From sequence record PQ330092: a stretch of 64,000 nt of DNA; one strand, given 5' to 3'. Numbering within the stretch: position 1 is the first letter of the stretch; every line of letters starts with the position of its first letter. Positions 12,263 through 12,879 of this stretch are shown here, in pieces. Below the pieces are notes generated by a model that was not told the DNA's origin, searched no databases, and saw only the letters and a list, made by a program, of their open reading frames with translations. The stretch comes from Escherichia phage JP4. The position numbers were made by a program, and so were the translations under genes.

Positions 12263-12786
12263 ATGGGATGAAGTAAAAGTTTGTGATATAATTATCTTGT
12301 ACAATTCTGTTGGCATGATATTCATGTACCTGATCCACTCGAAAACGTAGAGGGCAGTTGAGCAGTCCGACAGTGCGAACAGCAAAAGAAACCCGTTAGA
12401 TGTGGGCATAGTTTGAACCCCTCACGGCAATGCGGCTGTATAAAGAACCACGTTAGGATAGCTGGTGGTTCCTTGATAGACATATAAGGATAACACCTTA
12501 CGAATTATCTAAGGGAGAGTTATCGAATTTTGTACAGGAAAGTTGCGTCCAAAATTTGAGTACTCACATTAAGTATTTGATTGCATAGATACTTAATGAA
12601 GATACACTATGTTTAAAAGTGTAGACCGTCATATGAAACTGAAGTAGAGAGAAACAGGATGACCCGCTTTCGCACTCTTTATGAGTAATCTTCAATGCAA
12701 TAGCTCTGATACCATCAGCGTCAAATTTCCCTCCTTGTGGGGGGAAGAAAAATCCCTTCCTCAAATCCCGTCAATATTAAAAGTCC

Positions 12787-12815
12787 TTGACAGTTATTAA
12801 TCATTCGCGTAGAAT
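12787..12815 (+). promoter_or_regulatory. sigma70-type promoter
   Basis: TTGACA-17-TAGAAT upstream of the gene block starting at 12880. Confidence 0.55.
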
Positions 12816-12879
12816 ACGTAGTATTAGAAGCGAACAGACATCTCGAAGAGATGGATGATTAACCATTAAGGAATATCAA

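Follow-up and report, generated by a model that had tools for sequence, protein, structure and literature searches.

Covariation points to a stand-alone structured RNA gene in a gap without open reading frames of Escherichia phage JP4

A stretch of 64,000 nucleotides from Escherichia phage JP4 (sequence record PQ330092; the whole stretch is called the window below, with positions counted from its first letter) has a 0.6-kb gap at 12230-12879 with no open reading frame (ORF). From a comparison of homologous loci, we consider it very probable that the gap holds a real stand-alone gene of a structured non-coding RNA (ncRNA) whose family is not yet described. The RNA is predicted to fold into three junction domains that four pseudoknots tie together, with numerous joining strands that are rich in purines and invariant, and would be ~480 nt long in the window copy and 480-640 nt in its relatives. 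As far as the alignments tell, it is one of four old paralogues dispersed round the Asteriusvirus genome, and the family is present in all Rak2-like jumbo phages sampled as well as in one chromosomal defence island of E. coli.

A sequence-only reading of the window had described the gap as ORF-free and raised in guanine-plus-cytosine (GC) content, and had offered three explanations: a structured ncRNA, an intron-like or mobile remnant, or a regulatory region for a downstream HNH-containing block. The absence of ORFs held under the criterion of no ORF of at least 60 aa on the + strand or at least 90 aa on the - strand, and under it the window had only two gaps of more than 500 nt, 12230-12879 and one other. 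The GC content was indeed high, 0.496 at 12340-12480, whereas the mean of the window was 0.345 (z = 3.0; among stretches of that size, 0.55% were as high). Of the three explanations, the ncRNA gained strong support from the covariation of the ~96 base pairs tested, four pseudoknots among them; the remnant and the cis-regulatory alternatives were not supported.

Covariation and strand

Removal of near-duplicates left 32 distinct copies of the element with a mean pairwise identity of 55%. The helices were picked by a scan of all column pairs, and the named structures were then tested on three MAFFT alignments. As a control, the pairing partners were slid by 1-3 columns. The results for the three parts of the RNA were as follows.

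5' domain (12296-12444), 33 pairs: 93.2% of cells paired vs 31-45% slid; 26 pairs changed on both sides; covariation score 0.471 vs 0.158 shuffled, with 0 of 500 shuffles as high.
Middle domain with two long-range pairings (PK2 and PK3), 33 pairs: 92.2% of cells paired vs 34-40% slid; 29 pairs changed on both sides; covariation score 0.553 vs 0.189 shuffled, with 0 of 500 shuffles as high.
3' domain (12622-12782), 30 pairs: 93.2% of cells paired vs 44-56% slid; 19 pairs changed on both sides; covariation score 0.410 vs 0.204 shuffled, with 0 of 500 shuffles as high.

Combined over the three tests, 74 of the 96 pairs had changed on both sides, and in the model of the window copy all 119 pairs were canonical. 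Four of the pairings cross other helices and thus make pseudoknots. We also observed that at many pairs G-U alternates with A-U or G-C (for example, AU 17/GU 15 at one pair and CG 15/UG 15 at another). On the other strand these G-U pairs would be A-C mismatches; therefore, the RNA corresponds to the + strand.

RNAalifold applied to the full MAFFT alignment produced a partial and partly wrong structure, and it was replaced by the column-pair scan and by tests of single helices. No covariance models were built, and register shifts of MAFFT between subfamilies led to under-counting at helices P1b, P2b and P5 and at the ends of PK2. Since the alignments were not fitted to the structure, the covariation counts are conservative if anything.

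A coding signal was not seen: stop-free stretches were short and their positions were not conserved, and the conservation of columns had no period of three. Therefore, the small 'hypothetical proteins' annotated in the gap are spurious, and the finding shows the same for those that annotation pipelines place in such gaps. Records other than that of phage UE-S1 annotate 3-5 such proteins across the element. The UE-S1 record marks its 5' part as a bare 'repeat_region' (80759-80916 of ON568341.1; 1464-1621 of our locus L005).

Promoter and extent of the predicted gene

The promoter and the RNA are positioned in the window as follows.

12264-12292, + strand: promoter with a -35-like box TGGGAT at 12264-12269 and an extended -10 box TGTGATATAAT at 12282-12292, from the alignment of the 32 copies.
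12299-12779, + strand: predicted structured ncRNA, ~481 nt in the window copy, with 119 canonical pairs, ~20 helices and four pseudoknots.

The same promoter layout was found in every copy directly 5' of the conserved core: TGAAAC (or TGGGAY), 15-17 bases, and TGnTATAAT. TGAAAC is the -35-like box of most copies. In the 32-copy alignment the promoter columns G26, T28, A29, T30 and A31 were invariant and T5, G6, A9, C10, T23, T25 and T33 nearly so; that is, TGn kept its G and the -10 box four of its six bases without exception, and the -35-like box hardly changed. A scan for consensus promoters recovered the equivalent TG-extended promoter in the homologues L006, L002 and L003 but, owing to a weak -35 box, overlooked the one in the window. 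Extended -10 promoters work without a good -35 box. As judged from its sequence, the promoter is of the type used by the host sigma-70 RNA polymerase, and an RNA start at ~12298-12301 is predicted from its position. The RNA's own promoter at 12282-12292 had escaped the sequence-only reading, as had the multi-copy nature of the element. An nhmmer search found the sole copy in the window at 12261-12784.

Structural parts of the window copy

The predicted parts of the fold from the 5' domain to the 3' three-way domain, all on the + strand, are listed below.

12307-12376: 5' three-way domain with pseudoknot PK1, from covariation.
12307-12313 with 12367-12373: P1.
12314-12326: variable hairpin within the 5' domain.
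12330-12340 with 12350-12357: P1b, with the conserved loop GAAAAYGUA.
12362-12364 with 12374-12376: 3-bp hairpin of PK1, whose loop is the 3' strand of P1 (12367-12373).
12379-12439: P2 domain, 12379-12383 with 12435-12439 and 12393-12396 with 12424-12427.
12399-12406 with 12418-12423: inner hairpin of P2, with the conserved 11-nt loop CAUAGUUUGAA.
12445-12451 with 12465-12471: P3 hairpin; 7 of 7 pairs changed on both sides.
12456-12460 (P3 loop) with 12506-12510: PK2; two pairs split UA 18/GC 13 and AU 16/CG 16.
12485-12489 with 12496-12500: P4 hairpin, nearly invariant.
12517-12565: P5 'module' hairpin (UUUGUACA..AAGUUGCGUCCAAAAUU), from the alignments.
12567-12577 with 12588-12598: P6 hairpin.
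12580-12586 (P6 loop) with 12695-12701, 110 nt downstream: PK3; 99.6% paired.
12628-12694: 3' three-way domain with PK4; helices 84-100% paired, 15 of 19 pairs changed on both sides.
12628-12632 with 12659-12663: PK4, formed inside the P8a loop.
12640-12644 with 12690-12694: P8.
12647-12651 with 12667-12671: P8a; one pair AU 17/GU 15.
12674-12677 with 12683-12686: P8b.

In the 5' domain, 8 of 8 pairs of helix 1 and 7 of 8 pairs of helix 2 had changed on both sides. The 3-bp hairpin of PK1 (helix 3) was 100% paired, with UA 15, AU 9 and CG 7 at one of its pairs. Helix 4 of the P2 domain was also 100% paired, and 4 of its 5 pairs had changed on both sides (for example, AU 21 and UA 9); the inner hairpin of P2 is swapped for a longer one in some paralogues. 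In P4, the copies L033 and L039 have one A and one U deleted together.

P6 is the hairpin that had been seen in the sequence alone as taagtat..atactta; that string proved to be part of an 11-bp stem, in which 11 of 11 pairs had changed on both sides across the homologues. All seven pairs of PK3, which joins the P6 loop to the downstream strand, had changed on both sides as well (UA 19/CG 13, GC 25/AU 7 and UA 23/AU 7/CG 2 at three of them). PK3 could equally be an intermolecular contact. The packaging RNA (pRNA) of phi29 is likewise phage-encoded and structured and has a covarying loop pairing, intermolecular in pRNA, that serves as a model for PK3 and for the mutually exclusive loop sequences of the paralogues. 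Unlike the present RNA, pRNA is 174 nt long and single-copy, it acts in packaging, and the two are unrelated in sequence.

The pairing of P5 was only partly supported on the MAFFT alignment. The hairpin module (UUUGUACA..AG.U.CGUCCAAAAUU; GUACA...CGUCCAAAAUU) occupies the P5 site in most copies, lies inside the P8b hairpin in others (L006, L008, L029, L161), and is found at both sites in L002/L027. This distribution suggests a movable peripheral element making a tertiary contact; peripheral elements of large folded RNAs shift their insertion point in a like manner. Two unpaired conserved positions, 12429 and 12482 (and also 12372), change jointly from A to G in the same four copies. The joint change at 12429 and 12482 may reflect a tertiary contact of a non-Watson-Crick type that joins the GGCAAUGCGGC strand to the GAUAGACAUAUAAGG strand.

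The repeat module at the 3' end

Downstream of the 3' three-way domain, the conserved element has two direct repeats on either side of a hairpin, again on the + strand.

12712-12724: R1, direct repeat CCAUCAGCGUCAA, which varies in lock-step with R2.
12727-12746: P9, G/C-rich and sequence-conserved 3' hairpin; helix 5 was 87.5% paired, mostly with G-C to G-U changes.
12762-12774: R2, direct repeat CAAAUCCCGUCAA; the conserved element ends at ~12779.

P9 reads UUCCCUCC UUGU GGGGGGAA in the window and UUCAUUCCCC UGCG GGGGGAUGAA in most copies, and its G-run and C-run are invariant. Once seven copies had been added to the 32, R1 and R2 agreed throughout their nine matched positions in 37 of 39 copies, and five of these positions vary between copies. 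The agreement was 100% of sequences for 12712 and 12762 (C or G) and for 12715 and 12766 (U or C), and 94% for 12724 and 12774 (A or G). Changes at 12716 with 12767 and at 12720 with 12770 are confined to RaK2, and those at 12719 with 12769 to L023, each time in both repeats. The identity is specific to the copy and not to the genome: both repeats read UUGUCAG in L023 and UCGUCAG in L188, a copy of the same genome.

The motif ATC(N1-2)CGTCAR occurs in the window at R1 and R2 only. The unit from R1 to R2 is 49-86 nt long and its length is not constant modulo 3. A complementary partner for R1/R2 was found neither by column covariation, nor by RNAduplex on each sequence, nor by a search of the window. 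A complementarity of R2 to the 907 region of 16S rRNA, and of P9 to the anti-Shine-Dalgarno sequence, was judged to be chance; a 9-nt match is expected several times by our estimate, and the RaK2 variant does not fit. The idea of P9 as an independent mobile hairpin cassette was dropped too, with 13 of 13 exact occurrences in IMG/VR lying inside family copies.

The module of R1, P9 and R2, with its two repeats kept identical within each copy, is probably the business end of the RNA. Speculatively, repeats that are identical and not complementary would be needed for template switching, for strands to re-anneal or for RNA to pair with DNA.

Distribution and copy number

The gap locus was 100% identical to Escherichia phage vB_EcoM_E9.1 (651 bases compared) and 98.6-99.7% identical to 19 further records, among them 121Q, PBECO4, phAPEC6 and G17, jumbo myoviruses of the genus Asteriusvirus. 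A homology search against other phage genomes, proposed along with the sequence-only reading, showed that the gap is conserved far beyond the genus. In sensitive blastn searches the core, ~12328-12784, was 66-75% identical to ORF-free gaps in phages of other genera, with the hosts Erwinia, Serratia, Pectobacterium, Yersinia, Cronobacter, Salmonella and Xanthomonas, and in Klebsiella RaK2-like phages only a short 5' stretch matched. There were 4-5 matching places per record. In every record inspected the matches sat in ORF-free gaps of 0.6-0.9 kb, with flanking genes that vary by copy. For example, the four copies of 121Q (348.5 kb) share one strand and lie at ~90, 193, 247 and 327 kb.

A conserved 17-base pattern led to 20 copies in IMG/VR, which were confirmed by a profile hidden Markov model built from the first alignment, and the metagenome scan gave 18 further true matches; those on large contigs were on jumbo-sized ones of 349-371 kb. 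A loose pattern with variable gaps had at least 120 chance matches in IMG/VR, with no true one among the matches listed. The 17-base pattern had three chance matches only in the GTDB species genomes, a result that is no proof of the family's absence from bacteria since the pattern misses the E. coli island copy by one mismatch. Upon clustering, the four Asteriusvirus copies fell in four separate lineages. Several lineages are common to more than one genus; thus, the paralogues are old.

Independence from neighboring genes and a copy in an E. coli island

The copies have no conserved partner gene beside them: the proteins encoded downstream of different copies (262, 264 and 257 aa) are mutually unrelated, and a partner-protein gene was rejected on that ground. 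The copies in the Salmonella phage Munch and at 174.5 kb in the Serratia phage BF lie between genes of the opposite strand. About one third of the copies, the Munch copy included, have a hairpin and U-run of the intrinsic-terminator type after R1 and before P9, and the terminator scan called such an internal terminator in L002. With some copies flanked by opposite-strand genes and carrying their own terminator, the RNA is no leader.

Among 5,426 complete E. coli genomes, two chromosomes had blastn matches (NZ_AP027515.1 and NZ_CM130020.1), and 72,556 plasmids had no match to the RNA. In strain LR-29-1 (NZ_AP027515.1, ~3478970-3479626; 7888-8544 of locus L193) the profile aligned end to end, from promoter to R2 (nhmmer E = 2.6e-114). 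Around this copy is an ORF-free gap of 1.4 kb, within an island that has integrated next to ffs and that has a tyrosine integrase gene split by IS3, a resolvase gene, and the candidate defence genes PDC-M45A, PDC-M45C (DuOB, DUF488) and PDC-S16. Other parts of the island stretch, without the RNA, are present in 91 genomes (~82% identity in those listed). The closest phage copy, at 83% identity, is the Eneladusvirus paralogue at ~174.5 kb. Of 71 conserved pairs, 67 are retained in the island, and at 10 pairs both sides have changed relative to the BF copy without loss of pairing. With its conserved pairs kept and its changes compensated, we consider the island copy, which both chromosomes carry, intact.

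Comparison with known RNAs

The search against RNA family models that the sequence-only reading had proposed gave no credible match in the gap. Rfam 15 at gathering thresholds matched nothing in the whole window; at E <= 10, the region 12150-12950 had only terminator look-alikes and chance matches of at most 20 bits, and at E <= 1 nothing was found inside the element in six homologous loci. The models compared included GOLLD, ROOL, OLE, HEARO, raiA, group I and II introns, RNase P, tmRNA, 6S and riboswitches. The absence of a tRNA cloverleaf was also confirmed, with 0 tRNA or tmRNA genes called by ARAGORN in the 64 kb. Literature searches, which covered the genome papers of UE-S1, fEgEco12 and Sharanji and a comparative review of jumbo phages, turned up no description of the element and no RNA-seq of a Rak2-like coliphage. 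With no similarity to an Rfam model and no description in the literature, we class it as a new RNA family among the large ornate ncRNAs.

The features that define that class in practice (OLE, GOLLD and ROOL being examples) are all present: a length of more than 400 nt, no coding capacity, covarying helices with pseudoknots, and a stand-alone gene. GOLLD, ROOL and OLE are likewise non-coding RNAs of 500-800 nt with many covarying helices, pseudoknots and genes of their own; GOLLD and ROOL are, in addition, phage-associated and of unknown biochemical function. We know of no counterpart of the R1-P9-R2 module in the three. Unlike them, the present RNA has no sequence or structure match to their Rfam models, and it occurs in Gram-negative jumbo myoviruses with 4-5 diverged paralogues per genome. 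A cryo-electron microscopy report describes RNAs of this group as assembling into RNA-only homo-oligomers (PMC12286853).

Several specific identities were considered and rejected. A group I intron does not fit: the element lies between complete genes, its order of helices differs from P3-P4-P6-P7-P3'-P8-P7', and RF00028 had no match. A resemblance to the group I string GACCGUCA was dismissed on the same helix order and the lack of an Rfam match. Strings that look like RNase P RNA are in the wrong order, the would-be P4 strand pairs in P8a, and Rfam gave no match. A riboswitch or cis leader was rejected since two copies are followed by opposite-strand genes and a separate promoter lies 3' of the element.

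In phage PA5oct, a distant relative of the Rak2-like group, RNA-seq revealed 'lncRNAs' (long non-coding RNAs), ncRNA001-004, in ORF-free gaps; ncRNA002 is 451 nt long and made up as much as 5% of phage reads (PMC7318152). We rejected ncRNA001 and ncRNA002 as homologues: the 15-kb PA5oct stretch that contains both had no nhmmer similarity, and ncRNA002 showed none by eye. As these RNAs are not homologous, they are no evidence for expression of the present family.

Primer RNAs offer another comparison. ColE1 RNA II (~550 nt) and the oriF and oriG transcripts of T4 are promoter-driven, structured, non-coding products of the host RNA polymerase of ~500 nt, with G-rich and C-rich segments near the 3' end, and T4 has several per genome. 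The present RNA is similar in promoter, size, G/C segments near the 3' end and number per genome. On the other hand, the known primer RNAs are simple stem-loops, compared to four conserved pseudoknots here and, in some copies, an internal terminator-like hairpin.

In the ncRNA of the defence reverse transcriptase DRT2, which makes cDNA by template jumping in a rolling-circle manner, identical short repeats let the polymerase jump back. Both RNAs have a structured scaffold followed by a short segment bounded by two identical sequences, and one copy of the present family lies in a defence island. Unlike the DRT2 case, the concatenated R1-R2 unit of the present RNA has stop codons. With Pfam, no reverse-transcriptase domain turned up among the neighboring genes tested on either side of the window copy, nor among the eight proteins tested from the island.

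Possible function and rival explanations

In the explanation that we favor, the functional entity would be the folded RNA itself and not the DNA, a peptide or a leader of the next gene, and the RNA would be trans-acting, either a catalyst or a scaffold or decoy that binds proteins. Several observations weigh against it. The folding energy of the single sequence is like that of shuffles (z = -1.1 on the + strand and -1.5 on the - strand) with no significant difference, so that the evidence for structure is comparative and not thermodynamic. The terminator scan found none in the window copy before the next genes; its transcript may continue into them or need processing, and the transcript with its 5' end and, most of all, its 3' end is a prediction from sequence. 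RNA pairing does not predict that R1 and R2 vary identically, and this identity could point to a process at the level of DNA or of a polymerase, beyond a folded-RNA account. Finally, the island could use its copy, for example as a decoy or for hijacking, or it could merely carry the copy as a passenger.

As to the role of such a trans-acting RNA, our best guess, a tentative one, is phage-host conflict, favored because of the predicted early-type expression, the diversified paralogues in accessory regions and the fact that a defence island has captured a copy. Priming or replication as its role appears rather unlikely, and the probability that these two leave goes to some other ribonucleoprotein or ribozyme role.

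One particular design, in which the RNA is a scaffold-plus-template machine or R1 RNA invades the DNA at R2 to prime replication, we regard as quite unlikely. In the scaffold-plus-template version, the knotted body of ~430 nt would place a polymerase or a catalytic center, and R1-P9-R2 would be a jump cassette in which a strand copied to one repeat re-pairs at the other. With such a cassette, the polymerase would switch templates, copy in a rolling-circle manner or 'bypass' the segment of P9 and the terminator, a counterpart at the nucleic-acid level of the matched codons for take-off and landing of T4 gene 60. If the scaffold-plus-template or invasion account were true, it would be a new RNA-guided process in jumbo phages, copied by a bacterial defence island.

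Among explanations of a different kind, an RNA-primed replication origin is quite unlikely. Its structured pre-primer would stay hybridised near P9 and prime DNA synthesis, like ColE1 RNA II or the R-loop transcripts of T4 oriF/oriG; R1 RNA would pair with the template strand at R2, which requires R1 = R2, so that copy-specific repeat identity would follow from RNA:DNA and not RNA:RNA pairing. The 4-5 copies are fairly evenly spread round the ~350-kb genome, on one strand in 121Q, each with a strong promoter; the size is near that of RNA II, and P9 has its invariant G-run and C-run. The copy in an integrative island would then act as an origin from which the island is replicated when a jumbo phage infects. 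However, four covarying pseudoknots and many invariant junction nucleotides exceed what known primer RNAs need, the terminator-like hairpin and U-run between R1 and P9 in ~1/3 of copies would release the RNA before the hybrid site, and the other ORF-free region, at 58.5-59.9 kb with its iteron-like tandem repeats, is a more conventional origin or terminus candidate. Far less probable is a cis-acting leader, such as a giant riboswitch or a processive antiterminator like HK022 put or EAR, that controls read-through of the internal terminator or the P9 hairpin and resembles the regulatory region for the HNH block proposed from the sequence alone. Such a leader would suit the co-orientation of most copies with the following genes, the terminator-like hairpin and U-run followed by more conserved sequence in some copies, and the lack of a terminator before the next ORF in the window copy. 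Against this, the Munch copy and the 174-kb BF copy precede opposite-strand genes, the genes downstream of the paralogous copies are unrelated and have a strong promoter of their own directly after the element, and no riboswitch or leader model of Rfam matched.

A DNA-level element, such as a protein-binding or promoter array or a recombination or packaging site with R1 and R2 as the recognised repeats, is very improbable. The repeats do stay identical, their bottom strand reads TTGACG, which resembles a -35 box, and the copies are dispersed; yet such an element gives no reason for compensatory double changes at 74 of 96 pairs or for G-U pairs on one strand, nor would a single DNA-binding protein explain the copy-specific repeat variants (L023 vs L188). 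We give just as little weight to a remnant of a mobile element or self-splicing intron, or of a degraded or frameshifted protein gene, although there are several copies per genome, a gene annotated as an HNH endonuclease in 121Q is nearby, small ORFs are placed here in some annotations ('hypothetical protein x5'), and one copy was transferred into a bacterial island. No gene is interrupted, neither group I/II intron nor tRNA nor other Rfam models matched, and the element occupies the same locus in all Asteriusvirus genomes; its copies are old diverged lineages at fixed loci and not recent insertions. A frameshifted coding gene, which the sequence-only reading had set against its own RNA proposal, is contradicted by the lack of a conserved ORF and of codon periodicity, and purifying selection acts on the base pairs.

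To our knowledge, comparably large and intricate RNAs of bacteria and phages are few: rRNAs, RNase P, group I/II introns, tmRNA, OLE, GOLLD, ROOL and raiA. Each is a machine or still a prized unsolved problem, and the family would add a new member. It is tractable, with culturable E. coli phages (121Q, PBECO4, phAPEC6 and G17, among others) and four well-defined pseudoknots, and the 4-5 natural variants per genome make a built-in mutagenesis series. The defence-island copy hints at a role in phage-host conflict, and the identical-repeat module predicts a templated or switching process.

Neighboring features and other observations in the window

The features on either side of the predicted RNA gene are as follows.

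11264-12229, + strand: ORF of the sigma-70 family, with Pfam Sigma70 regions 2, 3 and 4.
12235-12258, + strand: intrinsic terminator of the sigma-70-family gene, a 10-bp stem and T-run, annotated as a terminator in phage G17.
12787-12815, + strand: separate sigma-70 promoter for the downstream genes, outside the RNA, TTGACA-17-TAGAAT, from the promoter scan.
12880-13089: next ORF after the gap, from the ORF list.

The terminator of the sigma-like gene and the promoter at 12787 had both been named in the sequence-only reading, and both were found again here. The copy in the Serratia phage BF has the same arrangement, with the promoter TTGACT-17-TAAAAT 3' of the element. Further downstream, the 262-aa ORF at 13318-14106, called HNH-containing in the first reading, is an HNH endonuclease in the 121Q annotation; Pfam at E <= 0.01 gave no match for it.

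The second large ORF-free gap of the window, 58529-59866 (1.3 kb), is dense in CAGTACTG palindromes, and at ~59530-59700 it has iteron-like tandem repeats of the GGCTAGAC/GGCTAAAC type. By its position in the E9.1 record it may be the start of the long terminal repeat, or else a region like an origin or terminus.

Seven cassettes were observed at 60427-63702, spaced by 255-802 bp and each ahead of a small gene. They consist of a promoter (AAAGTACTTGCAA, 17 bases, TATAAT) and then a G/C hairpin (GAGAGCGGGAA..TTCCCGC), and are similar to the PeSL (promoter-early stem-loop) repeats found in T4-type phages. Segments of 200 nt reached their highest GC content (up to 0.54) within a 245-aa ORF of the - strand, 46756-47493, and at ~61300, in the cassette region.

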